This document shows, piece after piece, positions 598 to 64,000 of a DNA stretch of 64,000 nucleotides. A program made the translations under genes and the position numbers. The notes under the pieces are model-generated. The model was not told the DNA's origin. It did no database searches and was given only the letters and a program-made list of their open reading frames with translations. The stretch lies in assembly GCA_964404285.1 (NCBI GenBank), contig CAYOJK010000007.1:89130-153129 (forward strand), given 5' to 3'. This DNA comes from an uncultured bacterium. GTDB lineage: Bacteria > CSSED10-310. The stretch's first letter is position 1. Each line of letters starts with the position of its first letter.

Positions 598-1335
598 TCA
601 CTCTATTATTTCTATCCAAGATGTATCATAATTGATTGATTTTAGAAGGTCTTCACGATTGATAAGTGGAGGCTTTCTTATCCTTATTGCAAGCCTATCT
701 TTTGGAACAGTTTCGATTATTGTGAATTGAGAACCGTGCGGTTGCCAAGTGAAAACATGCTGATCACTATTCTTTTCGAAGCCTTCCAAGTTATTGTTTT
801 TATTCCATTGCCACCAAAAATTTTCCATTCTGTACAAAATTGTTTCAAATTCAAAAACAGCGACCTCCAACAGATCGTCCGACTTAATAAGAACAACAGT
901 CCGAACATGCCTATACAGCTTTCGAATGGCAGCAACACGCGCATTCCAAATAGCAAGAATTTTTTCACCTAACTCATTTGGCTCCACTGCGCTAATTTTT
1001 CTGTCTCCATATGAATAAACTGGAGAATTCCTACCAGATATTAATCGCACCTTGGACACAGTTGATGGACTTTTACTCTTTACAGTTTTGGCGCCCCATG
1101 CCATTTGTTCTAAAACAACATCATCAAGTCCAACATTCGACGGTTTCCATTCTGCGTCTACAAGCCTTGAAAAGATTTCTTCCCAATCCGTTCCTTCCAG
1201 TCTTGCTGTTCCACGTGAAGCTAAAAGATACACAATCTCTCTTCCTAAATTAACAGCAAAATTTGGAGGAAACTTATTTAGCGGATAACGTGGCTTATAT
1301 TTCTCCACCGTTCGTAATCTTGGTTCTTTAACCAT
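598..1335 (-). CDS. Putative type II restriction endonuclease (cognate of the adjacent m5C methyltransferase)
   Basis: The 245-aa ORF is packed tightly between vsr and the methyltransferase on the same strand, with gaps of 3 and 10 nt. It has no recognisable housekeeping similarity. The assignment rests on position within an R-M cassette. Confidence 0.45.
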   Translation of the reverse strand: MVKEPRLRTVEKYKPRYPLNKFPPNFAVNLGREIVYLLASRGTARLEGTDWEEIFSRLVDAEWKPSNVGLDDVVLEQMAWGAKTVKSKSPSTVSKVRLISGRNSPVYSYGDRKISAVEPNELGEKILAIWNARVAAIRKLYRHVRTVVLIKSDDLLEVAVFEFETILYRMENFWWQWNKNNNLEGFEKNSDQHVFTWQPHGSQFTIIETVPKDRLAIRIRKPPLINREDLLKSINYDTSWIEIIE

Positions 1336-1345
1336 ATTTGACTTC

Positions 1346-2350
1346 CTATTTAAATATTCTCACTTGGCCATCAACTACATGAAAATGTTTCCATACGGGA
1401 TTCTCAGCCACTTGGTCGCTATGCCAATTCTGTGCAAGAAATAAATTTTTAATTACTGCTTTTGCAACCGGCACCGGCAAGCTATTCCCTGCTTGTTTTC
1501 TGGTTTGGCTATAATTGCAAATTATCTTAAAACTATCAGGAAAACCCTGTAAACGCAGCATCTCTCGTGAAGTAAGACGCCTTTCACCATTAACTAACAG
1601 GTAATTATAAGATGCTCCAGCACGCAAAGCGCAAGAAAACGGATAAGCGCTTATGTGCCCTGCCTTGTTTTCATGCCATATTGTAATCTCTTGTGTGGGT
1701 TTGTGCTTTTTCAAACGATTTTTTCTGATATGTTCCGACGCATAGTAAAATCTAGGCACATTCTCTTCTAAAACATCCTTTAATGGCTTCATTGGAAGTT
1801 TGTATCGAGGCCAATCAAAAGAACAAGCTTCTTTAAAACCTACAATAAAAACTCTCTCTCTTTTTTGTGGCAAACCGAAATCTAAAGCATTAAGCACGCG
1901 GTAGTCAATAAAATATCCCAAATCTTCCAAAGCTTGCATTATACGCGCAAGAGTCCTCCCTTTATTGTGACCAGTCAATAATTTGACATTCTCAAGCACA
2001 AATCCTTTGGGTTTTTTTGCCTCAATTATTCTGGCAATTTCAAAGAAAAGAGTTCCGCGTGTATCTTCAAAACCTTTCCTGTTCCCTATTATGCTAAATG
2101 GCTGACAAGGAAATCCGGCTAATAGCAAATCATGATCGGGTATGTCTTCTGACCTGATCGAAGTGATGTCTCCCGATGGCGTCTCATTAAAATTTTCTGT
2201 ATATACCCTACGGCAAGGCTCGTCAACATCACTAGAAAATACGCACTTAACCTTGACATCTAAATCATTGGCTACTTGTTCAACAGCAATCCGAAAACCA
2301 CCAATCCCACAGAATAAATCTATAAAAGTTATTTTAGTCTGATTCAGCAT
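1346..2350 (-). CDS. DNA (cytosine-5)-methyltransferase, Dcm/HhaI-like
   Basis: It has motif I FCGIGG, motif IV PCQPFS, ENV, and the QKRERVFIVG motif. The 334-aa length is typical of mono-specific m5C methyltransferases. Confidence 0.9.
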   Translation of the reverse strand: MLNQTKITFIDLFCGIGGFRIAVEQVANDLDVKVKCVFSSDVDEPCRRVYTENFNETPSGDITSIRSEDIPDHDLLLAGFPCQPFSIIGNRKGFEDTRGTLFFEIARIIEAKKPKGFVLENVKLLTGHNKGRTLARIMQALEDLGYFIDYRVLNALDFGLPQKRERVFIVGFKEACSFDWPRYKLPMKPLKDVLEENVPRFYYASEHIRKNRLKKHKPTQEITIWHENKAGHISAYPFSCALRAGASYNYLLVNGERRLTSREMLRLQGFPDSFKIICNYSQTRKQAGNSLPVPVAKAVIKNLFLAQNWHSDQVAENPVWKHFHVVDGQVRIFK

Positions 2351-6730: not shown

Positions 6731-7318
6731 ATGAAACAAAATACCAAAATAAAAGTGCTTCGTGAAATAAAAGATTGGTCTCGCAGCCTGTTATGGGGAG
6801 CCATTTTCGTTTATTTTTTTACCAGCTACGTATTCAAAGCCTATAAAGTTGAAGGCAGATCGATGCAACCCCTTTTGCAAAATGGTGAACGTATATTTGT
6901 CAATCGCTTAGTTTATCGGTTAGATGATATTGAACGGGGAGATATTGTTGTATTTTATCATCCTGCGGAACCCAAGGATTTTTTTATAAAACGAGTTTTG
7001 GGATTGCCGGGTGAAACGATCGAGGTCAGACGAGGCAAAGTGTACATCAATAATCAGCCAATAGACGATCAATTTGTTCCAGACTATTTCAGTAGCCGTG
7101 AAAATGTTAAAAGATTGATGATTCCTCAAGGCCACTATTTTGTTTCAGGAGACCATCGTAATCAAAGTTACGACAGTCGTATATGGGCCAACGAACCAGA
7201 CAAGTCACCATTTGTTCCTGAACAGTATATAATGGGTCGAGCATCATTTCGTTATTGGCCGTTAGCATCATTTGGCGTGATTAAAAATAATTTTATCCCT
7301 TTGGAGTCTTCAAGCTAA
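6731..7318 (+). CDS. lepB: Signal peptidase I
   Basis: It has the S26 motifs GRSMQP, RGDIVVF, KRVLGLPGE and GDHRNQSYDSR. Confidence 0.9.
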   Translation: MKQNTKIKVLREIKDWSRSLLWGAIFVYFFTSYVFKAYKVEGRSMQPLLQNGERIFVNRLVYRLDDIERGDIVVFYHPAEPKDFFIKRVLGLPGETIEVRRGKVYINNQPIDDQFVPDYFSSRENVKRLMIPQGHYFVSGDHRNQSYDSRIWANEPDKSPFVPEQYIMGRASFRYWPLASFGVIKNNFIPLESSS

Positions 7319-7321
7319 TTT

Positions 7322-9589
7322 ATGGCCTTGACACCCAACCCTCTAACCTCTGCTGTTTCCCTTGCCGATGAACCTAGCGCTATTCGTCGGTCTTGGCATA
7401 GTTGGATCACTCTTCAAAGCCAAAAAGCTTGGGTTTTGCCACACGTAGAACGACGATTCGATGCCATTGCCTACAAGAATATCACGGTATTTACTGCGCC
7501 TATTTTTCCTATATGGCTGGCCCACCTACTACGGAATCGCCTTCTCACTGAAGGATGGCCTGCACCTAAATACCTTTTAACAACTGGAAATATTTTTAAG
7601 CGACAAGCAGATACTCTTGCTTCAATACAAAATGAACCGGTCTTTTTTCTAGAATTGGGGATTGATCCAAAGCTTTCACATACCGCAAAAGAATGGATCG
7701 TTCAATTATTGGAAGAAGCTGCAATTCAAAATAAAACACTTCAATTCATACCACTCATATTCCTGTGGAATCGATCACCAAAACGCCAATACCTTTATCC
7801 TCTATATGGTTTTCTTCGTCACCGGCATCACAATGTGATCAGCACAGGGCTTCCAAAAACGATTCAACCAGGAATAACGAAAGAGATACCCTCAGCTCAA
7901 ACAATCCGCCGTGAACAGCTTGCTGCCTGGAACCAAGAAAGCCGATGCATAATCGGCGATAAAAAGGAGCCTATAAGAAAAACTATACAGACTATTCAAT
8001 CTGAACCGGTATTGTTGAATCTGTTGAAAAGCTTGGCTGGTCAAGGAAAAGATACGTTGCCGACCCTTCAATCCCGAGTCTCGGCTTATGTGCGGGAAAT
8101 TGCCGCTGATTATTCCCATGTTTCACCATGGGTCTGGGAAAAAGCCCTAGGACCATTCTTGAAGAAAAACTTTTCTTCCCTTGACTTTGATCACGACGGT
8201 TTGGACGAACTGCGAATTTTACTCCGAAAACGCGATATTGTTATTCTAACCCCAACACATCGAAGCCACCTGGACTATATTTTCATCTCATTCGCTATCT
8301 ATAAACAAGGGCTGGCCTGTCCACTTGTCGCAGCAGGACAAAATCTCTCTTTCTGGCCGATGGGATACGTGTTTAGAAAAACTGGAGCGTTTTTCATCAG
8401 AAGAACTTTTCGTGGACTTGATATCTATCCCCATGTATTCCGCTCATATTTATGGATGATTTTGCGAAAATTTCAACCGGTCGAATTCTTTATTGAAGGA
8501 GGTCGGAGTCGAACCGGCGCTCTTCTTCCTGCAAAACTTGGCATGCTAAACATGATTATTGACGCCTACACTGCAGGAAAACTCAAAGATGTTAAATTTG
8601 TACCACTAGCTGTCAATTATGACCGTATTATAGAAGAAGATAGCTACATCCGTGAATTGAAAGGCCTGCCCAAACAAACAGAACATGTGTCCAGCCTTTT
8701 TAAAAGCCGACACTTACTTAAAAGACATTTTGGAAATGTATGCTTTGCTATCGGTAAACCTGTCTCATTGGCTGAAACACTTACAACTAACGCTTCACAA
8801 ACTGAACAAAAAGATATGCTCAGCATGGTGATTATGAATAGCCTCAGGCTATCCATGCCGATAACATCAACTGCCCTGGTTGCCACCGTTCTAATGGCCA
8901 TTGATCCCAACCATGAAATTAGTTCGAATGAAATAATTGCCAACGCATGTGGTTTGCTACAAATCATAGAAGAGGTTCATCCAGACGCTAGCGTTGCCAG
9001 GGAATGTTCAGATAAATCCAAACTGGATTCAGTGTTACAATCCGCTCTGTTACGAATGCAAGAATTTCAAAATATTCTTCCAACTCAAGAACCTGACAAA
9101 TGGAAATTGAACGAAAACCGCCGCTTCCAAGTGGATTATTTAAGAAATAGTATTGTCAGCCTGCTCTTAGCGCCGGCGCTGGCAATCATTTATAACTCCA
9201 AAGAATGGGATTCTCCTGAGTCTATCAAACTATTGGAAATTTTCTGCCCTGGAATTCATCCTGTACCAACTCATGTCTTTAAACACGAAATTGATAAAAG
9301 CCTTACCCTTTTACCAGGCTGGTCCTTCGAACAGAAAAAACTCTTAATCCAAACTGTGTCACCCGTTTTAAACTTAATACAAAATATTCAAGCTATCGTC
9401 ATGTCAAAAAATATCGACGTTAAAAAGGCGACAACTCAGGTTTGGAACGATATTTTTAATCAGGTGATCGACAAAAAAACTAAAGAAACCTATCCGGAAA
9501 TTTGTACAAAATTCTTTGTTAACGAACTATTTAAAGCATTTAAGCAAAGTGGCAGTGAACCTGCTGATCACACCGACGGATCAGAATAA
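7322..9589 (+). CDS. plsB: Glycerol-3-phosphate 1-O-acyltransferase
   Basis: It has the GPAT blocks HRSHLDY, FFIRR, FIEGGRSRTG and VPLAVNYDR. It is 755 aa. Confidence 0.8.
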   Translation: MALTPNPLTSAVSLADEPSAIRRSWHSWITLQSQKAWVLPHVERRFDAIAYKNITVFTAPIFPIWLAHLLRNRLLTEGWPAPKYLLTTGNIFKRQADTLASIQNEPVFFLELGIDPKLSHTAKEWIVQLLEEAAIQNKTLQFIPLIFLWNRSPKRQYLYPLYGFLRHRHHNVISTGLPKTIQPGITKEIPSAQTIRREQLAAWNQESRCIIGDKKEPIRKTIQTIQSEPVLLNLLKSLAGQGKDTLPTLQSRVSAYVREIAADYSHVSPWVWEKALGPFLKKNFSSLDFDHDGLDELRILLRKRDIVILTPTHRSHLDYIFISFAIYKQGLACPLVAAGQNLSFWPMGYVFRKTGAFFIRRTFRGLDIYPHVFRSYLWMILRKFQPVEFFIEGGRSRTGALLPAKLGMLNMIIDAYTAGKLKDVKFVPLAVNYDRIIEEDSYIRELKGLPKQTEHVSSLFKSRHLLKRHFGNVCFAIGKPVSLAETLTTNASQTEQKDMLSMVIMNSLRLSMPITSTALVATVLMAIDPNHEISSNEIIANACGLLQIIEEVHPDASVARECSDKSKLDSVLQSALLRMQEFQNILPTQEPDKWKLNENRRFQVDYLRNSIVSLLLAPALAIIYNSKEWDSPESIKLLEIFCPGIHPVPTHVFKHEIDKSLTLLPGWSFEQKKLLIQTVSPVLNLIQNIQAIVMSKNIDVKKATTQVWNDIFNQVIDKKTKETYPEICTKFFVNELFKAFKQSGSEPADHTDGSE

Positions 9590-9665: not shown

Positions 9666-10742
9666 TCAGCGAGATCGGCCATATTGAAGCTTTGAAAAAA
9701 GCTCAGTCAGTACAGGGTCGTCTTTATCTTCTTTTTCAGCGATAGTCTGCGGTAAAGCCATTTCTTCGACATACTCGCCTACAATCAATCCCAACCGGAG
9801 CTCCCCTAGTTCGCCGGGACTTTGATCAACACCATAGATTAAATCAACATCATCACCCCAATTTGAGGTTATCAGATGAGCAACCTCTTCAACTTCGAAC
9901 AGGCTTAACGGCCCATCAGACCGAAGATGCATTAAAAGACTTGCTTTACGATTCAGAAAGCTTTCTACAGAATAATCCACCATGATACTCTCGGCTACCT
10001 CTTGAGCACGATGTTGTCCTCTCGCCCGTGCAGTTACTATCGTACTGCTCGACGATCCCGTCAAAGCTATTCGAATACGATTGAAATCGATCGGAACCAT
10101 TCCTGGAGCCAAAGCATCCATCAATGCCTGAATTTTATCAGCAAAACTCGTGTTGAAAGCCTCCAAATAACCTGGAAAATCCGCTTGATCAAATACCACA
10201 GGAACTTCTTTCATAGCACACAATTCACTGATCGTTCCCCTAGCTGTCATATGACGTTTTCTTCCAACAATTTCAGCATCCGGTAAACTCAATAATGACA
10301 AACAGGGAATTCCCGCTTTATTGAAAAGGTTAGCTAGAGCGGTCGTAACTCCGGAACCAATACCATCACCGGGCTGAGCAATTAAAAGCACAAAAAATGA
10401 GGACAGGGTCAATTCCAGTAAATCCGAGCTGATTTCAGCCATAGCTTTTGAAGCGGCTAGGGGATCACCACTGCTAAAACCGCGATAACGAGTATTTAAA
10501 GCGATATGAATATAATCATCCTGTAAATTGGGCAAAGAATCATCCCAGTTAATGCGAAACAATAACGGTCGAAAATCTTTCCTAAAAGATATTTTTTGCA
10601 ATACTTCAGCTCCAAAATCACCTATTGCTATGACAGCAATCTCACCCTTAGGTCTGACGTGACCGTCTCTCCTGTTCATGATCCCCCTCCTTATCTTCAA
10701 ACTTGTCCTGCCAAATCGATAATGGCCAGATTTCAAAATCAA
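9666..10742 (-). CDS. Degenerate FtsZ/tubulin-like protein (probable non-catalytic FtsZ paralog)
   Basis: It is colinear with FtsZ over its whole length, but the nucleotide-binding motifs are substituted. GGGGGN is replaced by GDFGAE, GGGTGTG by GDGIGSG, NTDAQ by NWDDS, and the T7 NxDFAD by IDFNR. The true start probably lies downstream, near 10679. Confidence 0.55.
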   Translation of the reverse strand: MILKSGHYRFGRTSLKIRRGIMNRRDGHVRPKGEIAVIAIGDFGAEVLQKISFRKDFRPLLFRINWDDSLPNLQDDYIHIALNTRYRGFSSGDPLAASKAMAEISSDLLELTLSSFFVLLIAQPGDGIGSGVTTALANLFNKAGIPCLSLLSLPDAEIVGRKRHMTARGTISELCAMKEVPVVFDQADFPGYLEAFNTSFADKIQALMDALAPGMVPIDFNRIRIALTGSSSSTIVTARARGQHRAQEVAESIMVDYSVESFLNRKASLLMHLRSDGPLSLFEVEEVAHLITSNWGDDVDLIYGVDQSPGELGELRLGLIVGEYVEEMALPQTIAEKEDKDDPVLTELFSKLQYGRSR

Positions 10743-11073
10743 GCCCGGTTCCCATCACAACATACCGATCTGCTTTATTCGCCAGATCCAAATGCTTAAA
10801 CTGAACCCTTCCTTGCAAATCGATATTCAGAGACATAACGTTCAACATAAAAGCACGCCGTCTATCTCTGACATCAGGATCTATGGATTTTCCAGGTATC
10901 TCCACTTCAAGGACCTGTTTCAATCGACCCGGATCAGTGGCGACCCAATAGTTATCCATCGGGTAAACACACAATTCTCCTCCACGTTCAATATTTCCGC
11001 TTTTAAACAATGAGGTCGGCAAGGTGATTCGACCTTGTTTATCCAACTGTATAAAACTTGTATTAAAATACAT
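10648..11073 (-). CDS. mraZ: Transcriptional regulator MraZ
   Basis: It has the two DxxGR repeats (LDKQGRITLP and IDLQGRVQF) and an FEIW motif. It is 141 aa. Confidence 0.8.
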   Translation of the reverse strand: MYFNTSFIQLDKQGRITLPTSLFKSGNIERGGELCVYPMDNYWVATDPGRLKQVLEVEIPGKSIDPDVRDRRRAFMLNVMSLNIDLQGRVQFKHLDLANKADRYVVMGTGLDFEIWPLSIWQDKFEDKEGDHEQERRSRQT

Positions 11074-12902: not shown

Positions 12903-14183
12903 TTGAGATTATTCTCATCGACGTCTGATCTTGATCACCATCCTGGAGGTTTGTTTATGATTAGATCACCCAATCGTTCAATTATTCTGCTGTCTGGATT
13001 ACTGTTTGTAACCTTGGTCTTTTTTTCATGTTCCAACCAGGATTCGGCAAGTATATCCTCTGATGTATCTTCCTCTGAAAAAGCTGAAAATATTTCTATC
13101 GCTGGCTCAACAAGAGCTAAATCTGCTGCTGAGAACGGTCCTCGTATTGTGTTCGATGAAACCACTCATGATTTTGGACGGCAGTTATCCGGTGAAGATT
13201 TGGAAAATATTTTTACCTTTACAAACAAAGGTGACGGAACACTGATAATCGAAAACGTAAAAGCCGGGTGAGGATGCACGGCAGCTCTGGTTTCCACCAG
13301 AGAAATTCCTCCGGGTGAGGAAGGAAAAATCAAGGTTACGTTTAAAACAGCTCATCGTACCGGTATTAATAGACACAGCGTCACGGTCACTTCTAACGAT
13401 AAAACCAGTCCGAATATGCAACTCGAGGTTGTTGCCGACTTGTACCACTTGCTAACAGTAGCGCCAACAAGACAATGGTTTGGACAGGTTAAGCAGGCTG
13501 AAGAAACAACCCGCCAATTCGTTTTTGAGGGTTTGAAAGTTAACGAGGTTGAATTCACCAGTCTCAAATTGAAAGATGAGTTGAAAAACCAGGATGCTTA
13601 CACCTGGAAGATCAACGATGCAAAAACTGATGAGACTCGCCAACTGACTTTAGATGTAACCGTCCATGGAGATAAAATTCCTCCTGGTCGTTTTGGTGAT
13701 GTGCTGATTATCGAAACAAATCTGGAGCCGACAGTTACCCTGGAATTAGTTTTGACCGGAGAAATTCTTGGACCTGTTTCAGCAAATCCACAACGATTGT
13801 ATTTCGGCCAATTTGAGATAGACAAAGAAATGGAAAGTGTCCTCAAATTGATAGCCAATACCGATATTCCATTCAAAATTCTTTCAGCTTCTATTGAGGA
13901 TTCGGAGTTCAAAATTGATTCCTGGAATCGTGAATCTCTCACTGAACATTCGTTGACAATCCGCTTTTTACCTAAAGAGACTCGAGATAGAATACGCACA
14001 TCTCTATCGATAAAAACAGACCTGGAATCTCAACCAAACCTGGAAGTTGAAATTCACGCTTATCAACGTAGAACCGGTCAGGCGAGAGACATGAAACAAA
14101 TGGATGCTCGAAGTCTGACATCATCCATAAAAGAATCTGACAGTAGTTCAGTCATTAAGACTCGTAAATTAAACGATAATTAA
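12903..14183 (+). CDS. DUF1573-family exported lipoprotein with an in-frame TGA (candidate selenocysteine) at 13269..13271
   Basis: A TTG start is followed by the lipobox FFSC. The DUF1573 core is HDFG...FTFTNKGDGTLIIENVKAG-TGA-GCTAALVS...IPPGEEGKIKVTF. A single TGA interrupts one continuous frame, so ORF-track entries 12903..13271 and 13416..14183 are co-frame. The sequence after the TGA is still conserved. Confidence 0.6.
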
Positions 14184-14231
14184 TGCAGTTAACGTGAAGT
14201 GATAACGAATATCGCTTTTTGAGAGAGACAA

Positions 14232-15302
14232 GTGAAAAATAATGTACTAAACATGTTTATCCGCGTCAGTTGGATGATTGCTATAGTGACCTGTATGGCC
14301 ATCGTAAAAGGATCTGACATCCCAGGTGAAAAGTCACCTGGGATTGCGTTCGACACAGTGGACCATGATTTTGGTGATCAGGTTTCAGGAAAAATTCTAA
14401 AGCATACATTTACCTTTAAAAACTTGGGGGCGACCCTCTTCTCCATTAAAGATGTAAAGGCTGGGTGAGGATGTACTGCTGTCCTGGTATCATCCAGTGA
14501 CATTCCTCCGGGTGAGGAAGGAAAAATTGACGTTGCATTCGACACCCAGTATCGATCGGGAAAAAATACGAAAACCATTACAGTTCGAACTGATGACCCG
14601 AACAACACCCATGTACAATTATCGGTGACAGCAAATCTCGATCTTCAACTGGATTCTACGCCCCGGCGATTGTGGTATGGGAAGTTAAACGGACCAAATC
14701 CGGAAACACGTTCCTGCACACTATCAGGATCTCGTATTGAAGAACTCGAAGTAAAACAAATAAGAATAGATGGAAATATCCCTGAAAAAGCTTTTTCTTG
14801 GCTACTAAACGATCAACGGGATTCAGGTAAAGCAGTAACGCTCGATGTGACATTTTATCCTGATGAGGCCATACCCGGAAGATTTCTTCATCAATTGATC
14901 ATTGAGACTAACTTGATCGATACGCCGGAATTAGTTGTCAGCCTGGCTGGAGAACTTACCGGATTTCTGTATTCATCACCATCAAGCGTATTATTTGGTA
15001 ACTTTGAAACGGGTGTCTCCATGAAAAAAACCGTCACTATTCAAACCTATCAAGAAATTCCGTTTTCAATAATTTCAGTTGACTCCGCTGATTCAGATAT
15101 TTCTATTACATTAGACAATGATCAGAAATCTCTGGAACACGTTATTGCTGTGCTCTTTGAACCAAGTGAAGATCGATCGGATATCCTTCAAACACAGATC
15201 AAGATAACGACGGATCTGGAAAAACAATCGGATTTTCTTCTGGATATTCATGGTTTTCCTAGACGGGCACAAAAAATATTACCGCCTCGTGATCAGAAGT
15301 AA
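14232..15302 (+). CDS. Second DUF1573-family exported protein with an in-frame TGA (candidate selenocysteine) at 14466..14468
   Basis: It is a paralog of the upstream gene with the same VKAG-TGA-GCTA context. ORF-track entries 14232..14468 and 14625..15302 are co-frame. It has a signal peptide and a conserved IPPGEEGKI downstream of the TGA. Confidence 0.6.
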
Positions 15303-15376
15303 TTTCATGCTTGACAGATCAAACCTGGATGTATATCGTTTGATTTCGATTGGTCACGTTGTCGATGACCCCGGTA

Positions 15377-15449
15377 GCCGAGGTAGCTCAGTCGGCAGAG
15401 CGAGGGACTGAAAATCCCTGCGTCGGGGGTTCGATTCCCTCCCTCGGCA
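15377..15449 (+). tRNA. tRNA-Phe (anticodon GAA)
   Basis: It folds as a cloverleaf. The acceptor stem GCCGAGG/CCTCGGC is a perfect 7 bp. The anticodon loop is CTGAAAA, the T-loop is GGTTCGATTCC, and the discriminator is A. No CCA is encoded. Confidence 0.9.
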
Positions 15450-15457
15450 AAAACTCA

Positions 15458-15485
15458 AACCCCTACTTGTTAGTAGGGGTTTTAT
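15458..15485 (+). terminator. Rho-independent terminator after tRNA-Phe
   Basis: The stem AACCCCTAC / GTAGGGGTT (9 bp) is followed by TTTAT. Confidence 0.65.
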
Positions 15486-15543: not shown

Positions 15544-17031
15544 ATGAAACCATTGGATGACGAAGAGCTGCTCTTGGAAAAACTTCGCGAAAAATTGGGA
15601 GCGCCTAAAAAGCAGGACGAGCGGGCGGAGTTGGAGCGTCTATTTGGAAAGCGAGAAAAAACTGACGAGGACCGATTGCGAGCCAAACTGGTTAAACCCT
15701 CCCTACAAGCTGGTGATATTATAGATGTCACTATCGAAAAACTCGCGTTTGGCGGCGAGGCCATCAGCAAATATAAAGCTTATCCTATTTTTGTTACTGG
15801 AGCTGTCCCCGGTGATACGGTTAGAGTCCGAATAAACACAGTTGCTAAAGATATGTGCCGAGCAGAGATACTTGAGTTTACAGCGAAATCTTCAAATCGA
15901 ATACCCGCTGAATGCCCCTATTTCGGTAAGTGTGGAGGCTGCCACCTTCAATGTCTGGTATATACAGCCCAGCTCAAAGCCAAAGAGGATATGATGGCGG
16001 ATATCCTGTCCCGAATAGGTGGAATCGATAGCCCTGTCAGAAATGTCGTCGGTTCACCGGAAAAGGTTGGCTACCGTATCCGAACTCGAATCCATGTAAG
16101 CATTTCCAATAATAAGATCGTGACAGGATATTATGCAGCTAAAACCCATGATCTTGTTCCAATAGATCATTGTCCGCTGTTGACAAAACCGTTGAATAGC
16201 GTAATTGCTGCTTTACCTGATCTGCTTCCTCTTCCCGGCACCGCTCCAATTCCTGCTGAAATCCAATTGCAAATGTCGGTTGATAGTGGAAATGTCCTTA
16301 TGTATCTAGTTGGTAAAGACCTGTATGGTGTTGAAAACATTTTGGAAAAATCAAAAAAACTGAACCTGCCACTCACAGGTGTTATTCAAGAAAGTAACGG
16401 TATGTATGCAGGCGATGTAACTCTCCTTCACTCTGTAGGGAAATATAGATACAGAACAACCGCAGATGCATTTTTTCAAGCCAATCACTATCTACATAAA
16501 AAACTGATTGACCAAGTTCTGTTGTTGGCTTCACCCTCGCTAAAAGATACGGTTTTAGACCTTTATTGTGGCAGCGGTTTTTTCAGTCTGCCCTTAGCGC
16601 CATTCGTCAATTCTTTGATCGGTTTGGACAACAATCCATCATCAATTGCAGATGCCGGCTTCAATACTGAACAAGCAAATTTGTCAAACACGAGCTTTTA
16701 TCTTTCAGATGACAAGAATTTTTTTAAGCATCCGGTTGTTAAAGACACAAAATTCTCTTTAGTTATAGTGGATCCTCCACGTCAGGGTTTGTCTTCTGAA
16801 GCTATCAAGGGAATTATCGCTTTAAAGCCGGAAAAATTGATGGTTGTTTCATGTGATCCGGCAACTTTGGCAAGAGATTTACGAATATTGGTCGAATCGG
16901 ATTTTCGAGTGCGGGTCATCCAGCCAATAGATATGTTTCCACAAACTTATCATTTGGAAAACCTTGTGTTTTTGACTCATAAGTATACGGGCGCTCAAGC
17001 AGCACATCGTGCTTTTTCAGATTTGCGTTGA
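15544..17031 (+). CDS. 23S rRNA (uracil-5)-methyltransferase, RumA/RlmD family (TRAM domain, 4Fe-4S cluster, SAM methyltransferase)
   Basis: It has an N-terminal TRAM region, the Cys cluster CPYFGKCGGCHLQ, the SAM motif VLDLYCGSGFFSLPLA and a C-terminal VVSCDPATLARD. It is 495 aa. Confidence 0.85.
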   Translation: MKPLDDEELLLEKLREKLGAPKKQDERAELERLFGKREKTDEDRLRAKLVKPSLQAGDIIDVTIEKLAFGGEAISKYKAYPIFVTGAVPGDTVRVRINTVAKDMCRAEILEFTAKSSNRIPAECPYFGKCGGCHLQCLVYTAQLKAKEDMMADILSRIGGIDSPVRNVVGSPEKVGYRIRTRIHVSISNNKIVTGYYAAKTHDLVPIDHCPLLTKPLNSVIAALPDLLPLPGTAPIPAEIQLQMSVDSGNVLMYLVGKDLYGVENILEKSKKLNLPLTGVIQESNGMYAGDVTLLHSVGKYRYRTTADAFFQANHYLHKKLIDQVLLLASPSLKDTVLDLYCGSGFFSLPLAPFVNSLIGLDNNPSSIADAGFNTEQANLSNTSFYLSDDKNFFKHPVVKDTKFSLVIVDPPRQGLSSEAIKGIIALKPEKLMVVSCDPATLARDLRILVESDFRVRVIQPIDMFPQTYHLENLVFLTHKYTGAQAAHRAFSDLR

Positions 17032-17062
17032 AAAACAACATGACACTGAGTAATCTATTAAC

Positions 17063-17159
17063 GGGAGCGGGTGGTGTCTGGTGATGCCTCCGGTCTTCAA
17101 AACCGGTATGGGGTCTTAAAAGGGTCCTAGGTGGGTTCGATTCCCATGCGCTCCCGCCA
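17063..17159 (+). tRNA. selC: tRNA-Sec (selC), anticodon UCA
   Basis: It is 97 nt with a long variable arm, the anticodon stem-loop CCGGT-CTTCAAA-ACCGG (anticodon TCA, which reads UGA), a GTGGG-TTCGATT-CCCAT T-arm, a long 7-8 bp acceptor stem, a G discriminator and an encoded CCA. The acceptor pairing at position 8 is imperfect (G-G) in my fold. Confidence 0.8.
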
Positions 17160-17186: not shown

Positions 17187-18449
17187 ATGACAGAGAAACG
17201 GTTATATCCGGATATAGCCTCAGTCAAGCTACCAATAGTCGTCCAGAAATTTGGCGGCACAACAATGCAGGGCACAACTGCTTTTGAACCGATTAAAAAC
17301 GCGATAAAACGAGTGTTACAAACAAGACGAAAAGTCGTTGCAGTGGTTTCAGCTATCGGGCGCGGCCCGAATTCGGAATCCGGATTTCGAGGTGACCCTT
17401 ATGCGACGGATACATTACTGACACTTCTGCCACATGATCCAACACGTATATGCCTACGTGAAAAAGATTTGTTGATGATGTGTGGTGAAGTCATTTCTGC
17501 TGTAAAATTAGCCTGCTATTTGCGTTCACATAATATATCCGCTAGAGCACGAACAGGTTTTGAAGCCGGAATAATTACTGATGAAAACTCGTGTAATGCC
17601 AGAATAAAAGCTGTTTTTCCCAACCGTATTTTAAATGATTTAGGGTTAATGGATGTTGTTGTCGTTGCCGGCTTTCAAGGTATTTCTGAAAAAGGCAAAA
17701 TAACCACTCTTGGCCGGGGTGGATCCGACACGACTGCTGTCGCCTTGGGGAAAGCTTTGAATGCTGAGCAGATTGAAATTTACACGGATCAAAACGGCGT
17801 TTTTTCTGCGGACCCCCGTGATGTTTCTGAAGCAAAACACTTAGATATAATAAATGCTAAAGATATTGTACACATGACCTGGGCGGGTGCAAAAGTTCTT
17901 CATCCGCGTGCAGCTGAAATGATCGATCGGTTCAAGCTTCCCGTCACTATTGGAAGCGTTTTGGCGCCCGAAAATACAACGCTGGTAGAAGTAAAAGAAT
18001 CTTATGAGTCATCGCAGCTTATAACAGCAGTCGCTCATGGTGAAATTGTCACCCAAATAACTATTTTTGACCAAATACAGGGTAATGCTTCGTTTCTGGA
18101 AAAAGTATTCAAATTGGTCTCAGACGCATCAGTTAGCATGGATATGTTCACTGTCACAGAAAACCTGTTGCAATTTACTGTGGAAGATGCACAAGCTCCC
18201 CAAGTGATCAGTTTACTGAAGAAAAATGACTATCACTTTTCTGCTCGAAATAAATGTAAAAAGGTGTCTATCGTGGGTGCCGGTATGCACAAAATGAAGG
18301 GTGTCGCCGCACGTTTTGCAAAAGCATTGGCAAAAGCAGGTATTTCAATTCTGCAGACAGCAGACTCCCATGCCACTATTTCAGTACTCGTTGACAACAA
18401 TGACGCGAAAAAAGCTCAACAAGTATTACATGATGAGTTTTTAGCGTAG
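17187..18449 (+). CDS. lysC: Aspartate kinase
   Basis: It has the VVQKFGGTTM N-terminus, an amino-acid-kinase fold and C-terminal ACT domains. It is 420 aa. Confidence 0.85.
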   Translation: MTEKRLYPDIASVKLPIVVQKFGGTTMQGTTAFEPIKNAIKRVLQTRRKVVAVVSAIGRGPNSESGFRGDPYATDTLLTLLPHDPTRICLREKDLLMMCGEVISAVKLACYLRSHNISARARTGFEAGIITDENSCNARIKAVFPNRILNDLGLMDVVVVAGFQGISEKGKITTLGRGGSDTTAVALGKALNAEQIEIYTDQNGVFSADPRDVSEAKHLDIINAKDIVHMTWAGAKVLHPRAAEMIDRFKLPVTIGSVLAPENTTLVEVKESYESSQLITAVAHGEIVTQITIFDQIQGNASFLEKVFKLVSDASVSMDMFTVTENLLQFTVEDAQAPQVISLLKKNDYHFSARNKCKKVSIVGAGMHKMKGVAARFAKALAKAGISILQTADSHATISVLVDNNDAKKAQQVLHDEFLA

Positions 18450-28021: not shown

Positions 28022-28894
28022 CTGAATCAAAATACTTCTAAAGCTTACTTTTGCAGTTTCATTCTTTTAATCTGCCTGGCGTGTGGCGGCTGCTCAGTCC
28101 GAAGAATTGCCAACAATGCCCTGATTGACCTGACAAGCGCTCTTTATCAACAGCGCGATGTGATTTTAGCTAAAGAGGCTTCAGCCCCTTTTCTCCTATT
28201 GACAGATACGATGATATTGCGACACCCTACCGATCCAATGTATCTCCTTGGAGGCGTTCAAGCTTATGCTGCTTATGCCTCGGCTTTTCTGGTGGGAACA
28301 GACCAAAAACGAGCTTTTACGTTGTTTGACCAAGCATTGAAATATGGTTTTTCGTTATGGGAAACTAGTTTTGGGTGGAAATATGTGCGCATGATACCCT
28401 TGGATGATTGGGATCAAGCGCTACAACGTGTCTCTGTTGACGATATTGCGATTCTTTTCTGGACAGCCAATACATGGGCCTCATGGATCACTGTACACCC
28501 TGATTCAATTCTGGCAATTTCAGATCTGTCACATGTTGTGGCGGCAATGAATCGGGTCCTTGAACTGGATGAGACATATCAAGATGGCGCAGTGCATTTG
28601 TTTTTCGGAATGTATTATGCCGTCCAACCGGCAGGACTTGGCAGAGATCTAAAAAAGTCTCACGATCATTTTCAAAATGCTATTCGGCTTGCGGGACCGG
28701 AAGCCATGCTTCCTCGGGTCTTATATGCACGTTATTATGCTAGAGCTAATTTTGATGAAGAGCTATTTACAGAGCTTCTGGAAGGTGTTTTAGCATCTCC
28801 TGTGGAGTTTTCTGATCCTAATCTAAACTTAATGAATGCCATAGCTCGAGATCGTGCGGCAGAATATCTCTCACAAATCAATGAATTGTTTTAA
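28022..28894 (+). CDS. tatT: TRAP transporter TatT-component family lipoprotein (probable CTG start; annotated GTG at 28160)
   Basis: The TatT-like helical body is followed by dctPQM. An in-frame upstream extension encodes MNQNTSKAYFCSFILLICLAC|GGCS (a lipobox). It is preceded by the SD GGGGGAGG 5 nt before CTG 28022, and no ATG, GTG or TTG is available. Confidence 0.55.
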   Translation: MNQNTSKAYFCSFILLICLACGGCSVRRIANNALIDLTSALYQQRDVILAKEASAPFLLLTDTMILRHPTDPMYLLGGVQAYAAYASAFLVGTDQKRAFTLFDQALKYGFSLWETSFGWKYVRMIPLDDWDQALQRVSVDDIAILFWTANTWASWITVHPDSILAISDLSHVVAAMNRVLELDETYQDGAVHLFFGMYYAVQPAGLGRDLKKSHDHFQNAIRLAGPEAMLPRVLYARYYARANFDEELFTELLEGVLASPVEFSDPNLNLMNAIARDRAAEYLSQINELF

Positions 28895-28908
28895 AGCATG
28901 GAGGAAAC

Positions 28909-29934
28909 ATGACTAACCCAATTATTCGCAGCGCTATTATAATCGCAATCCTGTCATTTGCTTTTGCTCTATCTTCTCCCGCCTGTGCTAACACCTTAAA
29001 ACTGGCGACAATGGCTCCAGAAGGAAGTATTTGGATGCAACAGGTTGAAGCATTGAACAAAGAACTAGCAGAAGTCACCAAAGGACAGGTTTCTTTCAAA
29101 GTTTATCCGGGTGGCATCATGGGCGATGATGATGTTGTATTGAGAAAAATCCGGGTAGGCCAATTGGATGGCGCCTTATTTACGACTAATGCTCTTTCCA
29201 AATTAAATGATGATATCTATTTACTTACCTACCCAGGAATCTTTTTAAACGATCAGGAAGTTGATCATTTTCTTGAATCGCAAGAAGATTTTTTTGTATC
29301 ACGGCTTCAATCTGAGGGTTATGAAGTTCTGGGAATCATGAGCTTAGGATTTACCTATGCCTATGCTACGTTTCCTATTCAGGATATGAGCGACATGAAA
29401 AATGCTAAAGCTTGGTTGTGGGATAACGATCAAGTAATGAATACTATGTATTCAAAGCTAGGGATAGCGCCAATAACAGTCAGTATTGGCGACGTAATGA
29501 CAGCTTTGCAAACCGGGCTTTTAAATACGGTCTTCAACACCCCCACAGGTATTGTATCGATGCAATGGTTTTCACGGGTCAAATATATGCTGGATTTTCC
29601 ACTGACACATTCATTCGGCGCTTTTGTCGTTAAAACATCCAGCTGGAAAAAAGTACCGGACGATCTGAAACCTAACATTAAAAATCTTGTTAAAAAATAT
29701 ACAGATGGTATTACAGAAAAAAACCGTATTGAAGATGACAAAGCTAAAGCGATCCTTCAAAGCCGAGGTATCACAATTTTGACGCCATCGCCTGAATTAA
29801 CCGATAATCTGCATGCTCTGTTTACAGAAGTTAGGGCTGATTTATTGCCGACTAGTATGGTTGAATCTTATCAAAATATTTATTCTGTAGTAGAAAATTT
29901 TAGAGTTAACTCGACACAGGCAACAACAGATTGA
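28909..29934 (+). CDS. dctP: TRAP transporter substrate-binding protein (DctP family)
   Basis: It has a signal peptide and the DctP fold. It sits immediately upstream of dctQM. Confidence 0.85.
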   Translation: MTNPIIRSAIIIAILSFAFALSSPACANTLKLATMAPEGSIWMQQVEALNKELAEVTKGQVSFKVYPGGIMGDDDVVLRKIRVGQLDGALFTTNALSKLNDDIYLLTYPGIFLNDQEVDHFLESQEDFFVSRLQSEGYEVLGIMSLGFTYAYATFPIQDMSDMKNAKAWLWDNDQVMNTMYSKLGIAPITVSIGDVMTALQTGLLNTVFNTPTGIVSMQWFSRVKYMLDFPLTHSFGAFVVKTSSWKKVPDDLKPNIKNLVKKYTDGITEKNRIEDDKAKAILQSRGITILTPSPELTDNLHALFTEVRADLLPTSMVESYQNIYSVVENFRVNSTQATTD

Positions 29935-30416
29935 AAAATTTTACCCGATTTTATCATAACCTTGAAAATACTGTTATGGTTGTATTGCTTCTGCTTCTGC
30001 TTCTGTTGTCTTTTTATCAGGTTGGCGGGCGCCTTTTTTTCAATACAGGTTTCAAGGATGGAGATACTATTGTTTATCATCTGGTTTTATGGACCGGCCT
30101 CTGGGGCGCTATCTTGGCTACCCGTGACAAACAACATATTACCATCGATGTGATCAGTCGCCTTACCTCAAAACATAACCAACTTCTTATTCAAGGTATA
30201 ACGAATCTATTCTCGGCAATTATCTGCGGAATTATCACCTGGGCTGCTATTTTATTCATTCGTGATGAAATCCAATATACGCAAACAAAGGTCTTATACC
30301 TTCCTCTATGGCTCTATCAATTGATTATTCCCTATACATTCCTAGTAATCTCGATTCGCTTTTTTAAGAATAGTACAAAGGATTTCTTAGCTTTTTCGAG
30401 AAAGGATCGATCATGA
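29931..30416 (+). CDS. dctQ: TRAP transporter small permease (DctQ)
   Basis: It is a 161-aa protein with 4 TM segments. It overlaps its neighbours by 4 nt on both sides. Confidence 0.8.
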   Translation: MKNFTRFYHNLENTVMVVLLLLLLLLSFYQVGGRLFFNTGFKDGDTIVYHLVLWTGLWGAILATRDKQHITIDVISRLTSKHNQLLIQGITNLFSAIICGIITWAAILFIRDEIQYTQTKVLYLPLWLYQLIIPYTFLVISIRFFKNSTKDFLAFSRKDRS

Positions 30417-31675
30417 TTCTTCTCAGCGGCCTCATCACCATAGTCCTCGCATTACTGGGAACCCCTCTCTTTGTCATCATTGCCGCTAATGCTCTGATTC
30501 AACTTCATGTTGTGCAATATGACATAACGCTGATGATTATTGAACTCTATCGTCTTGCAAACATGCCGATGCTTTTGCCAATTCCTTTATTTACGCTTGC
30601 CGGTTATATATTAGCGGAAAGCGGCGCTCCTCAAAGGCTGGTCAGAGTCTCCCAGGCGCTTTTTGGATGGATGCCCGGCGGCCTTGCAATTGTATGTATT
30701 GTCGCCTGCGCGATTTTTACTGCTTTTACCGGAGCCTCCGGTGTAACCATCATTGCATTGGGAGGGTTGATCTACCCAGCCCTACTAAAAGAAAACTATC
30801 CAGAACGGTTTTCTCTTGGCTTGATTACCTCGTCAGGAAGTCTTGGATTACTGTTTGCGCCTAGTCTTCCATTGATTTTATATGGAATAACAGCCCAAGT
30901 CTCAATTGATGACCTATTTAAAGCCGGTGTACTCCCCGGAATACTGATCTTGGCCTTTTTAGGTGTGTACAGTGGATTTAAAGCCAATGCATTCAAAGTA
31001 AAACGTCCTGCATTTAATCTTCAAGAACTGGGCAAAGCTCTTTGGGAAGCCCGATATGAAATCCCGTTGCCCATCATTATTTTATCCACCATTTATTCAG
31101 GAATACTCGCTATTTCAGAAGCTGCCGTATTCACAGTTTTTCTTGTTCTTTTTGTCGAAGCTATACTCTACCGAGAAATCAATCTGGCTCACCTTAACGA
31201 TATTGCTCGAAAAAGCACGATACTGGTCGGTGGAATCTTAATCATAATGGGATGTTCATTAGCCTATACAAATTGCCTTTTGGATGCTGAAATACCCATG
31301 AAAATTCTTGCTTGGCTTCAGAGTTTTATCAGCAGCCGAATTGCATTTTTGATTGCGCTAAACCTGTTTTTACTGCTTGTGGGATGTATGCTGGATATTT
31401 TCTCAGCTCTTATTGTCATTGTGCCTTTGATATTGCCTATTTCGCGAGAATTTGGGATCGACCCGATTCATCTTGGCATTATCTTCTTAGCCAATTTGAA
31501 TATAGGATATATGACTCCTCCTGTTGGCCTGAATCTATTTATCGCTTCATTACGATTTAAAAAGCCCGTTATCACACTTTACCTTGCCACTGTTCCTTTT
31601 CTTGTTTTTATGCTGGCAGCTTTAATCCTAATAACATATATCCCCTCTATCTCCCTGTGGTTTGTCAACCTTTGA
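30413..31675 (+). CDS. dctM: TRAP transporter large permease (DctM)
   Basis: It is a 420-aa polytopic membrane protein with the DctM family pattern. Confidence 0.85.
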   Translation: MILLSGLITIVLALLGTPLFVIIAANALIQLHVVQYDITLMIIELYRLANMPMLLPIPLFTLAGYILAESGAPQRLVRVSQALFGWMPGGLAIVCIVACAIFTAFTGASGVTIIALGGLIYPALLKENYPERFSLGLITSSGSLGLLFAPSLPLILYGITAQVSIDDLFKAGVLPGILILAFLGVYSGFKANAFKVKRPAFNLQELGKALWEARYEIPLPIIILSTIYSGILAISEAAVFTVFLVLFVEAILYREINLAHLNDIARKSTILVGGILIIMGCSLAYTNCLLDAEIPMKILAWLQSFISSRIAFLIALNLFLLLVGCMLDIFSALIVIVPLILPISREFGIDPIHLGIIFLANLNIGYMTPPVGLNLFIASLRFKKPVITLYLATVPFLVFMLAALILITYIPSISLWFVNL

Positions 31676-55436: not shown

Positions 55437-57110
55437 TTGGTTATGAAAGCTATTATCCGACAATATAAGCTCCTGATAATAACCAGCCTTCTGGTCTTTT
55501 CAGGATGTAACCAAATACCATCCTCGGAAACATCACAATCGACAGGTCTAACTATTTTAGGTTTAGATGGCGCCACCTGGAGTATTATCGATTTTTTAGT
55601 TGACAGGAATGAATTGCCAGGTTTCAAACGATTGAAAGAAGAGGGTTCATGGGGATTTCTTGAAACGTATACTCCCACCGAATCCATTTCACTTTGGACA
55701 ACAGTCGCCACTGGTGTATCGCCGTCGCGGCATGGTATTCATACTTTTACAAGGCGGATACCCGGAACCGATCAATATGTGCCTTCTCCAGGCACAGACC
55801 GACAAGTCCCCGCTCTCTGGAACATGGTTTCAGATAAAGGCAAAACAGTTGTATCTGTCAAATGGTTTGCTTCTTGGCCGGCTGAACAAGTCAATGGAGC
55901 CATGTTGTCACCACGACTTGAAGCAGAAGACGCAGAACCAAGAACATATCCTGCGGATTTATTCAATGAAATCGATTCTTTCCGTTATCAAAGCACAATG
56001 GATGCTTTTCCACAGCCTCCACGTTCGAAACAGAATGCGCAGGCGATCTTTCAATCCCCAGCCCATGAATCTGACCGAAATGCGCCTCCTATGCTGATTG
56101 GCCAAAGCCAAGTGAACGCTAAAATGTTCGATGACACATCAGTCTGGCTTGCCGGTAAATATGTTTATCAGAAATACTCCCCCGATCTATTCATGCTGTA
56201 TTTGAAAAGCACTGATAGAGTTCAGCATTTTCTATGGGGTTCACAGCAAAATAATAGCGCCGATCCAGCTATACAAGCAGAAGCAGAAGCTATTTATGCT
56301 TGGTACCGCTTTTATGACGACATCATTTTAGAATTACTCGAAGACCGAACCCGTACCTTGATGGTTGTTTCAGATCATGGATTCCATTCGCTTAATAGTG
56401 TTGACGACCCCTACTTCATCTGGGATATCGACTTCGACTCGATCTTGGAGTTTTCAGGTTTTCTTGTACAAAACAACCAGAAAACTATCTGGCCGCAGAC
56501 ATCTGCATACACCTATCGCACCATGCCGTATGATAAGGCGGTCTTATTTCGGTTGAACCTGGTTGGACGTGAGCCGGACGGAGTTGTCAAGCAGGAAACA
56601 GCCTCATCACAGCTTGGAGACTTAGCTGTAACTTTGGAACAATTAAAGACAATGGATGGTATAAATCTATTCAATGATATCCAGATTTTCGATGAGGATG
56701 CCACCTTGTTTTGCAAATTAACCGATACGATATCATTGGATGATGTTATCTGTCTGGACAATCGTTTGTTAAAGCTCCGCAATATAATTATCCAAAAAGG
56801 ACTTCCCCGTGGATTGCACACCCATGCGCCGCCTGGAATTTTTGTTGCTCATGGTCCCGGAATTGAAAGAGGGCGAACAATAACAGGTGCAAAACTGTTC
56901 GATATAACTCCAACAGCATTGCGTATCTTGGGGCTTCCGGTGGCTCGAGATTTTGAAGGGCACGTGATCGAAAATATTTTCAGCCCAGGCTGGAAAGAGA
57001 TCGAATACATACCGACTTATGGCAGTAGGCAAACCACTGATGAGTTGACCGTAACGGATGGTGACAATCGTATGCTCGACGAACTTCGTACTCTGGGCTA
57101 TATCCAGTAA
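55437..57110 (+). CDS. Alkaline phosphatase superfamily protein (type I phosphodiesterase / nucleotide pyrophosphatase-like), exported
   Basis: It has a signal peptide and the LGLDGATWS and VVSDHGFHS metal-ligand blocks. Confidence 0.7.
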   Translation: MVMKAIIRQYKLLIITSLLVFSGCNQIPSSETSQSTGLTILGLDGATWSIIDFLVDRNELPGFKRLKEEGSWGFLETYTPTESISLWTTVATGVSPSRHGIHTFTRRIPGTDQYVPSPGTDRQVPALWNMVSDKGKTVVSVKWFASWPAEQVNGAMLSPRLEAEDAEPRTYPADLFNEIDSFRYQSTMDAFPQPPRSKQNAQAIFQSPAHESDRNAPPMLIGQSQVNAKMFDDTSVWLAGKYVYQKYSPDLFMLYLKSTDRVQHFLWGSQQNNSADPAIQAEAEAIYAWYRFYDDIILELLEDRTRTLMVVSDHGFHSLNSVDDPYFIWDIDFDSILEFSGFLVQNNQKTIWPQTSAYTYRTMPYDKAVLFRLNLVGREPDGVVKQETASSQLGDLAVTLEQLKTMDGINLFNDIQIFDEDATLFCKLTDTISLDDVICLDNRLLKLRNIIIQKGLPRGLHTHAPPGIFVAHGPGIERGRTITGAKLFDITPTALRILGLPVARDFEGHVIENIFSPGWKEIEYIPTYGSRQTTDELTVTDGDNRMLDELRTLGYIQ

Positions 57111-57300
57111 CAGACAAAATCATTATTTCATTTGATGGAGGCAACGACGACCTACCGCAAAATAGTCTCAAAGCCAGCGATCCTCGGTCAGCGCAACTCG
57201 TGAACCCGATTGAACAACTCGATCATTTTTACCAGCGTCCGGCTATCGTGCATCAGGAAATCGGTCATTTGCCGGTTTGAGATCGTCCGACATCTTCAAT

Positions 57301-60582: not shown

Positions 60583-60587
60583 CCTCT

Positions 60588-61820: not shown

Positions 61821-61942
61821 AATACTGCCCAGCCACCGCAGAGGCGGGACGTTTCATGTATTCTTTGCGTCAATCTTTTAATCAAGTCCACTGTGCCGAT
61901 TTGTATTTTATATTCTGGAAACTCGATCTTGTCGTTGCTCAT
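61817..61942 (-). CDS. Small upstream ORF (41 codons) translationally coupled to sbcD
   Basis: ATG 61942 is preceded by the SD AAGGAG 8 nt upstream. Its stop TGA overlaps the sbcD ATG (ATGA). It is below the ORF-track size cutoff and has no recognisable family. Confidence 0.3.
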   Translation of the reverse strand: MSNDKIEFPEYKIQIGTVDLIKRLTQRIHETSRLCGGWAVL

Positions 61943-62035
61943 AAAATCGCTCCTTGTTTTTCGTCACCTCAGTGATGGCAGCCTTCACAGACATAACACT
62001 TCTACTCCTTGACCCTTGTGTTTGCGCCATCATCG

Positions 62036-62266
62036 TCAGTCCCGGCGAACTGTTAAGAAATTCTTAACAGTTGCCTGGGGCGTTAACTCTCCCTCCTCAA
62101 AAATGTTGCGGATGTGCATGCTGATATTCGGAACAGTGGTTTGGAACAACTCCGCTATCAATTGTTGCGTTAGCCAGACGGTCTCATCCTGCAAGCGCAC
62201 TTCCAGTTTAATATGCCCGTCATCGGACTGATAGACGATGATTTCACCCTTGTTCTCACAGTTCAT
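62036..62266 (-). pseudogene. Truncated RhuM-family (virulence-associated) gene fragment, N-terminal 76 aa only
   Basis: It has the canonical RhuM N-terminus (GEIIVYQSDDGHIKLEVRLQDETVWLTQQLIAELFQTTVPNISMHIRNIFEEGEL), then diverges and stops. Full-length members are about 330 aa. Confidence 0.6.
62051..62071. repeat. Perfect 10-bp inverted repeat CTGTTAAGAA-A-TTCTTAACAG at the RhuM truncation point
   Basis: The palindrome was read directly from the sequence. It coincides with the point where the RhuM homology ends. Confidence 0.6.
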
Positions 62267-62730: not shown

Positions 62731-62779
62731 CGGTCATGAACAGCACGTGCATCTCTTCCAGCTCTTCCTGGGTGTTGCC

Positions 62780-63978: not shown

Positions 63979-64000
63979 AGGAGGATAAATATCAAATCGG

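Follow-up and report, generated by a model that had tools for sequence, protein, structure and literature searches.

A tRNA-Sec(UCA) gene and nearby DUF1573 selenoprotein genes in an uncultured member or close relative of candidate phylum CSSED10-310

Described UGA-decoding tRNAs and the gene in the window

In Escherichia coli, selC encodes a tRNA-Sec with the canonical 8/5 layout, which comprises an acceptor stem of eight positions, a GU linker, a 6-bp D-stem with a 4-nt loop, the anticodon loop CUUCAAA, a 5-bp T-stem with G49·U65, the discriminator G73, and CCA. A long variable arm and G73 are the identity elements for SerRS. Bacterial SECIS hairpins of the E. coli fdhF type place their apical loop roughly 16-37 nt after the UGA codon, and conserved G/U nucleotides in that loop contact SelB. 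Variants of tRNA-Sec with 7/5 and 8/4 arrangements (Cloacimonetes type, Epsilonproteobacteria, and others) have effectively 12 standard acceptor/T pairs (PMC5330540; PMC7609411), and in many bacteria selC adjoins selA or selB (PMC5330540). Two other kinds of tRNA come close to these forms, namely the selC*-type tRNA-Cys, which features a U73 discriminator, an 8/4 fold, and a bulged A51a, and the allo-tRNAs, whose acceptor/T domain is 12 bp long and takes an 8/4 or 9/3 form (PMC7609411). Among the proteins, the prokaryotic selenoprotein families on record include DUF1573 with a UGC motif, first described from an Olavius symbiont (PMC9312934; PMC13188914).

We analyzed a 64-kb stretch of contig DNA from an uncultured bacterium, hereafter the window, in which ARAGORN called a tRNA-SeC at exactly 17063-17159 on the forward strand (GGGAGCGGGUGGUGUCUGGUGAUGCCUCCGGUCUUCAAAACCGGUAUGGGGUCUUAAAAGGGUCCUAGGUGGGUUCGAUUCCCAUGCGCUCCCGCCA), with anticodon tca at position 35. 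The Rfam tRNA-Sec model RF01852 matched 17063-17155 over its full length with 76.6 bits (gathering score 47; E 5.7e-14). The gene spans 97 nt including an encoded CCA, and identical or orthologous copies are present in 12 related loci (L081-L092). The first-pass annotation had described a 97-nt tRNA with the loop CUUCAAA, a long variable arm, and a long acceptor stem, located between an rRNA methyltransferase gene and lysC; each of these elements was found at 17063-17159, and the ARAGORN run that it had proposed as a check returned the SeC tRNA at the same interval. Upstream lies rlmD (15544-17031, +), which encodes a 23S rRNA (uracil1939-C5)-methyltransferase (Pfam TRAM and tRNA_U5-meth_tr; TIGR00479, 273 bits against a cut-off of 184), and downstream lies lysC (17187-18449, +), which encodes an aspartate kinase (Pfam AA_kinase and ACT; TIGR00657, 294 bits against a cut-off of 209) and starts 27 nt after the tRNA. 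This placement differs from that of the many selC genes adjoining selA or selB. Apart from the tRNA-Sec, ARAGORN and Rfam found a single RNA gene in the window, a tRNA-Phe(GAA) at 15377-15449 (+), which is a conserved member of the same neighborhood.

Taken together with the comparative evidence below, these results leave us with high confidence that 17063-17159 is a functional selC encoding tRNA-Sec(UCA), from an uncultured member or close relative of candidate phylum CSSED10-310. The locus is ordinary and of standard bacterial type, with a known selenoprotein family nearby and a little-studied lineage as its host.

Structure of the tRNA and its eighth acceptor pair

The acceptor and T domain of the window tRNA consists of 8+5 positions on both strands, which is the 8/5 arrangement of 13 positions. 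The 5' strand of the acceptor stem (positions 1-8; 17063-17070, +) pairs with positions 86-93 (17148-17155), such that G1 pairs with C93 (G1-C72 in standard numbering); pairs 1-7 are standard and are paired in 100% of ten distinct orthologues, and the eighth is G8·G86. After the linker G9 U10 follows the D-arm (17073-17088, +), with a 6-bp stem (positions 11-16 with 21-26) and the 4-nt loop UGGU, which is supported by the Rfam alignment and is invariant and 100% paired in the clade; this 6-bp/4-nt geometry also fits 53 of 74 tRNA-Sec genes from the broad sample described below. The anticodon arm (17090-17106, +) has a 5-bp stem (28-32 with 40-44) and the 7-nt loop CUUCAAA, in which the anticodon UCA occupies 17097-17099 (positions 35-37), and both the loop and the anticodon are invariant in the ten orthologues. 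A long variable arm of 21 nt (positions 47-67; 17109-17129, +) forms a stem of about 7 bp with 95.7% of cells paired. The T-arm (17131-17147, +) has a 5-bp stem (69-73 with 81-85) and the loop UUCGAUU; all five of its pairs are standard, the outermost (49:65) being G69·U85. The 3' end (17148-17159, +) comprises the acceptor 3' strand, the discriminator G73 (G94, at 17156), and the encoded CCA (17157-17159), and it is invariant in the ten orthologues.

The single-sequence fold energy of the tRNA was not significantly better than that of shuffled sequences (z = -1.78), with the minimum-energy fold being the same cloverleaf. Because single-sequence fold energies were non-significant both here and for the post-UGA hairpins discussed below, we used comparative evidence. 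ARAGORN called tRNA-SeC at the same position in 12/12 related loci, in which the rlmD-selC-lysC placement is kept while lysC identity ranges from 100% to 50%, a CSSED10-310 metagenome-assembled genome (MAG) included. Seven orthologues tested with the Rfam tRNA-Sec model scored 72.5-78.9 bits, and the alignment of the ten distinct orthologues showed a mean column identity of 95%. Compensatory changes were observed in the acceptor stem (C6-G88 to U6-A88, in L088), in the anticodon stem (G30-C42 to U-A in L091; U32-A40 to A-U in L091 and L092), and in the variable arm, where three pairs are changed on both sides. When the 8/5 structure was imposed explicitly, 95.8% of cells were standard pairs with six compensatory pairs, and 0/500 shuffles reached the observed covariation score. 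As a control, shifting the 3' partners 1-3 columns out of register lowered pairing to 46-56% and left zero compensatory changes. The D-stem and T-stem are invariant in the clade and thus give no covariation signal there, and their support comes from the broad sample only. The presence of the same gene at the same place in 12 loci, combined with covarying stems, indicates that the tRNA is not a chance match.

The manual fold in the first-pass annotation had left a G-G mismatch at the eighth acceptor pair and had therefore questioned the 5' boundary. The mismatch is real, as G8 and G86 are unchanged in all ten orthologues. To place it among bacterial tRNA-Sec genes more widely, we searched metagenome contigs for a pattern in which the anticodon and T-loops, the spacing of 13 positions, and GCCA were fixed and the acceptor stem was free. 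The scan yielded at least 80 matching loci (L093-L172) and 74 unique sequences, of which 72 were called tRNA-SeC(tca) by ARAGORN and 65 were called from position 1. In this sample, which comprises the first matches reached by the scan and is phylogenetically unbalanced such that its frequencies are rough, acceptor pairs 1-7 of the 65 genes were at least 98% paired in 8/5 geometry. Pair 8 was Watson-Crick in 25/65 and non-standard in 40/65 (G·G in 10, G·A in 10, A·A in 6, C·A in 5, and others). The same acceptor strands as in the window, GGGAGCGG and GCGCTCCC, occur in three sampled genes (L120, L145, and L169). Because a non-Watson-Crick eighth pair is common among the sampled bacterial tRNA-Sec genes, the G·G is normal and 17063 is the correct 5' boundary, which removes the doubt about it. 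We also observed that the non-Watson-Crick appositions at pair 8 in the sample are mostly purine-purine or pyrimidine-pyrimidine, and that only G-C, G-U, or A-U occurs at the adjoining pair 49:65. For manual folding of tRNA-Sec, the sample carries a caution, which is that the eighth acceptor pair was more often non-Watson-Crick than Watson-Crick.

The same sample bears on the choice between the 8/5 and 9/4 folds, both of which the first-pass annotation had allowed. The 9/4 drawing, with nine acceptor and four T pairs, comes from the mixed-domain Rfam model; we rejected it, as the T-stem pair 49:65 is pairable in 74/74 sampled sequences and the alternative 9:65 in only 18/74, and the fold obtained is 8/5.

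Compared with the canonical selC of E. coli, of which L097 is an E. coli-like sampled copy, the window tRNA has the same layout, including a long variable arm in both, and differs at the eighth acceptor pair, which is G·G here and C-G there. Its identity to any sampled tRNA-Sec is at most 79%, and a blastn search of the window tRNA against E. coli genomes gave no match. Like the 7/5 and 8/4 variants, it has effectively 12 standard acceptor/T pairs; unlike them, it keeps 13 positions on both strands with a purine-purine apposition, has no bulge, and retains the full linker.

These structural features also weigh on the possibility that the gene encodes a selC*-type tRNA-Cys, which would insert cysteine at UGA and give the DUF1573 proteins discussed below Cys in place of Sec. 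Such tRNAs have in common with the window tRNA the UCA anticodon and a tRNA-Sec-like shape (PMC7609411), the recoded site is equivalent to a Cys position, and the Sec enzymes were not found in the window, with no selA, selB, or selD among its ORFs of at least 150 aa. However, the window tRNA has an invariant G73, a G1-C72 pair, and an unbulged T-stem of 5 bp, and it is followed by lysC rather than by a selB*-like or cysS*-like gene, which makes insertion of cysteine by this tRNA very improbable and favors the assignment as tRNA-Sec.

DUF1573 selenoprotein genes and candidate SECIS hairpins

The first-pass annotation had read a DUF1573 pair 1.8-4 kb upstream of the tRNA as selenoproteins, and the conserved TGA, a Cys paralogue, and covarying hairpins bear this out. 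DUF1573 selenoprotein gene A (12957-14183, +) has its Sec TGA at 13269-13271, and gene B (14232-15302, +) has its own at 14466-14468, each within the motif VKAG-U-GCTA, such that U occupies the first Cys of a C-x-C motif (AG-U-GC) in both genes. When TGA was entered as Cys, matches to Pfam DUF1573 (PF07610) ran across it with 91.1 bits for gene A and 90.3 bits for gene B (gathering score 26.1). The best model for both was NCBIfam NF041425 (OS_HP2 family (seleno)protein), which, with U entered as C, scored 79.5 bits (E 1.8e-22) and 84.7 bits (E 4.2e-24), respectively, below its cut-off of 100. Like the OS_HP2 family, the window proteins have the DUF1573 domain, and their conserved Cys-x-Cys site reads U-G-C; they differ in scoring under the cut-off and in their greater length of about 350-410 aa, which includes a C-terminal extension without a family match. 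Across the window and nine divergent relatives, TGA is found at the same position in 18/18 distinct DUF1573 copies. A Cys homologue is present as the first paralogue in L092, which is an uninterrupted gene of 362 aa that reads T-C-S-C-T-A-A at the Sec site. A frame-aware scan of the 64-kb window found no credible in-frame TGA genes beyond the two DUF1573 genes.

In every clade assembly examined, public gene callers cut each DUF1573 gene at the TGA into an N-terminal ORF of about 70-110 aa and a C-terminal ORF of about 190-330 aa. These split ORFs are a systematic mis-annotation, which affects 12957-15302 of the window and the equivalents in L081-L092, and recognition of selC allows the DUF1573 genes to be annotated as single Sec-containing proteins. 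In the L091 locus, a porin gene (6890-7921, -) stands in place of the second DUF1573 selenoprotein gene. Combined with the Cys-form first copy in L092, this replacement indicates that DUF1573 copy number and the Sec/Cys state vary within the clade.

Downstream of each Sec codon we identified candidate SECIS elements that comprise two hairpins and are supported by covariation in 18 genes. In gene A, the element spans 13285-13322 (+), with hairpin 1 at 13285-13302 and hairpin 2, with loop CGGGU, at 13306-13322; in gene B, it spans 14482-14519 (+), with hairpin 1 at 14482-14499 and hairpin 2 at 14503-14519. Numbered from the Sec codon, hairpin 1 pairs +17..+22 with +29..+34 around a loop at about +23..+28, with five pair types observed at 18:33 and both CG and UA at 19:32. 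Its loop lies within the range of roughly 16-37 nt that published bSECIS criteria give for bacterial SECIS loops. Hairpin 2 pairs +38..+43 with +49..+54 around the CGGGU loop, with 100% of cells paired in the 18 genes, and its pair 42:50 alternates among CG, UA, and UG, such that a synonymous Pro change is coupled to a Glu/Gly change. For the hairpins overall, 0/500 shuffles reached the observed covariation score, and their fold energies relative to shuffles were non-significant (z = -0.9 to -1.3).

As a control, we examined the Cys paralogue, in which only 1/6 pairs is kept in the register of hairpin 1, and a different 7-bp hairpin is present in L092 near the position of hairpin 2, offset from it by about 3 nt. 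In hairpin 1, the loop varies and lacks a conserved G, whereas the CGGGU loop of hairpin 2 is invariant but about 44 nt from the UGA. Since the Cys paralogue lacks it, hairpin 1 appears to be the better SECIS candidate of the two, with that paralogue serving as the one control. Hairpin 2, at about 38-54 nt after the Sec codon, is farther than a canonical SECIS loop, and it includes frozen synonymous sites, with CCG for Pro and GAA for Glu in 18/18 copies.

The DUF1573 genes also bear on whether the tRNA could be a decaying, non-functional opal-suppressor pseudogene, with the ORF pairs upstream being broken genes. The non-Watson-Crick G8·G86 in the acceptor stem and the splitting of both DUF1573 genes by public callers would fit such decay. 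However, the tRNA retains 95% column conservation while lysC diverges to 50%, it shows compensatory changes in three helices, and its G·G is invariant and of a kind common among tRNA-Sec genes; furthermore, the TGA and hairpins are kept in 18/18 DUF1573 copies, whose halves are in frame and share a domain that spans the stop. We therefore regard decay as highly improbable and retain the reading of a functional tRNA-Sec with recoded client genes.

UGA decoding, lineage, and neighborhood

Within the window, TGA ends 14 of 46 family-supported genes, including rlmD. We rejected a global reassignment of UGA on these grounds, and the ordinary use of TGA as a stop in those genes means that Sec recoding is site-specific. 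General suppression of UGA through EF-Tu by an allo-tRNA or another non-canonical serine-accepting tRNA, which the long variable arm and G73 would allow and for which allo-tRNAs known in Acidobacteria (PMC7609411), of which CSSED10-310 is a reported sister phylum (PMC8248873), might be cited, has a probability close to nil given the 8+5 positions of the window tRNA, the use of TGA as a normal stop in 14/46 genes, and the occurrence of only two in-frame TGA candidates in 64 kb, both with downstream hairpins.

The tRNA and the recoded DUF1573 genes agree with the earlier claim that the organism reads UGA as Sec. On these two lines of evidence, the lineage does decode UGA as Sec, and we infer that it also encodes the enzymes SelA, SelB, and SelD, genes for which were not found among the window ORFs of at least 150 aa. 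By analogy with the established bacterial Sec pathway, SerRS would charge the tRNA-Sec with serine through G73 and the long variable arm, and SelA would turn Ser-tRNA-Sec into Sec-tRNA-Sec using selenophosphate from SelD. SelB, rather than EF-Tu, would then bring Sec-tRNA-Sec to those UGA codons that have a SECIS hairpin downstream, and the 13-position acceptor/T helix would be the feature that steers the tRNA to SelB.

The tRNA would probably be transcribed from a promoter-like element of its own. A putative sigma-70-type promoter is located at 17028-17056 (+), with the -35 element TTGAAA at 17028-17033, a 17-nt spacer, and the -10 element TAATCT at 17051-17056. The gap between rlmD and selC is 31 nt; the -35 element overlaps the rlmD stop TGA (17029-17031), and the -10 element ends 6 nt before G1. 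Among ten aligned relatives, a -35-like TTGAAA and TAnnnT are fixed in their spacing and the spacer sequence drifts. A consensus promoter scanner made no call at selC, because the -10 element matches the consensus at only 3/6 positions, and the promoter is thus proposed from its conservation. Transcription from this TTGAAA-17 nt-TAATCT element probably starts very near the mature 5' end of the tRNA, and it may continue into lysC. A T-run follows the CCA in only three relatives, which makes read-through into lysC, 27 nt downstream, plausible. The tRNA-Phe gene has a near-consensus promoter-like site of its own, TTGACA-17 nt-TATCGT at 15311-15339, and is followed, just before rlmD, by a perfect 11-bp palindromic hairpin (15457-15482) with a terminator score on both strands.

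To place the organism, we examined homologues of its lysC product. The exact LysC protein of the window was found in at least 50 assembly blocks, which indicates that the organism is recurrent in metagenomes. Its homologues form a graded series from 84% to 45% identity, in which several named "candidate division CSSED10-310 bacterium" appear from about 60% to 45%. Gene order over about 20 kb is identical in the loci of nine lysC homologues, and runs from signal peptidase, acyltransferase, FtsZ-like, MraZ-like, amidohydrolase, and DUF1573 gene(s) through tRNA-Phe, rlmD, tRNA-Sec, lysC, a TPR protein, two DUF507 genes, and DUF4416. One of the related loci, L091, is contig JAFGLW010000016 of the MAG Zod_Metabat.419, which its authors place in GTDB phylum CSSED10-310 (PMC8248873). 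The window lineage thus appears to be CSSED10-310 or a close sister, a placement that draws on the nearest named homologues and synteny rather than on phylogenomic placement. In contrast to the conservation within these relatives, no tRNA-Sec was found in 80 loci of distant RlmD homologues (at most 35% identity, from many other phyla), and the rlmD-selC-lysC arrangement is specific to the clade.

In the open-access literature, we found no paper that mentions Sec use in CSSED10-310, and the locus adds this poorly known uncultured lineage, with its relatives, to the Sec-using bacteria. Its value lies in annotation and taxonomic range, and the understanding of the Sec decoding mechanism is unchanged by it. 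A more far-reaching joint reading would combine three proposals: that the locus is the first explicit evidence of Sec use in CSSED10-310 and relatives, with a phylum-wide neighborhood (DUF1573 pair, tRNA-Phe, rlmD, selC, and lysC) that keeps selC less than 4 kb from its client genes; that recoding depends on a bipartite signal, with hairpin 1 at the canonical distance and a strictly conserved hairpin 2 (CGGGU, frozen synonymous sites); and that the invariant purine-purine apposition at acceptor position 8 itself helps to select SelB and exclude EF-Tu and is not merely tolerated. We consider it rather unlikely that this combination holds.

Several features elsewhere in the window were also observed. 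At 9666-11073 (-), a very divergent FtsZ/tubulin-like gene, which scores 49.5 bits with TIGR00065 (cut-off 295), overlaps a MraZ-like gene at the 3' end of the latter; the MraZ-like gene matches the first 29 MraZ model positions only, and the pair is kept clade-wide. At 598-2350 (-), a C-5 cytosine DNA methyltransferase gene (1346-2350) adjoins a 245-aa ORF without a Pfam match (598-1335), and the two could form a restriction-modification pair. Within 57000-64000, sbcC/sbcD and several ORFs without a family match (62263-63391) have a higher GC content, which climbs there to 0.48-0.54 from about 0.40-0.43, and this segment may be horizontally acquired. Finally, the genes at 28160-31675 (+) comprise a TAtT (TPR-protein) and DctP/DctQ/DctM operon, which corresponds to a TPR-protein-associated TRAP transporter and lies beside an acyl-CoA dehydrogenase gene in most relatives.
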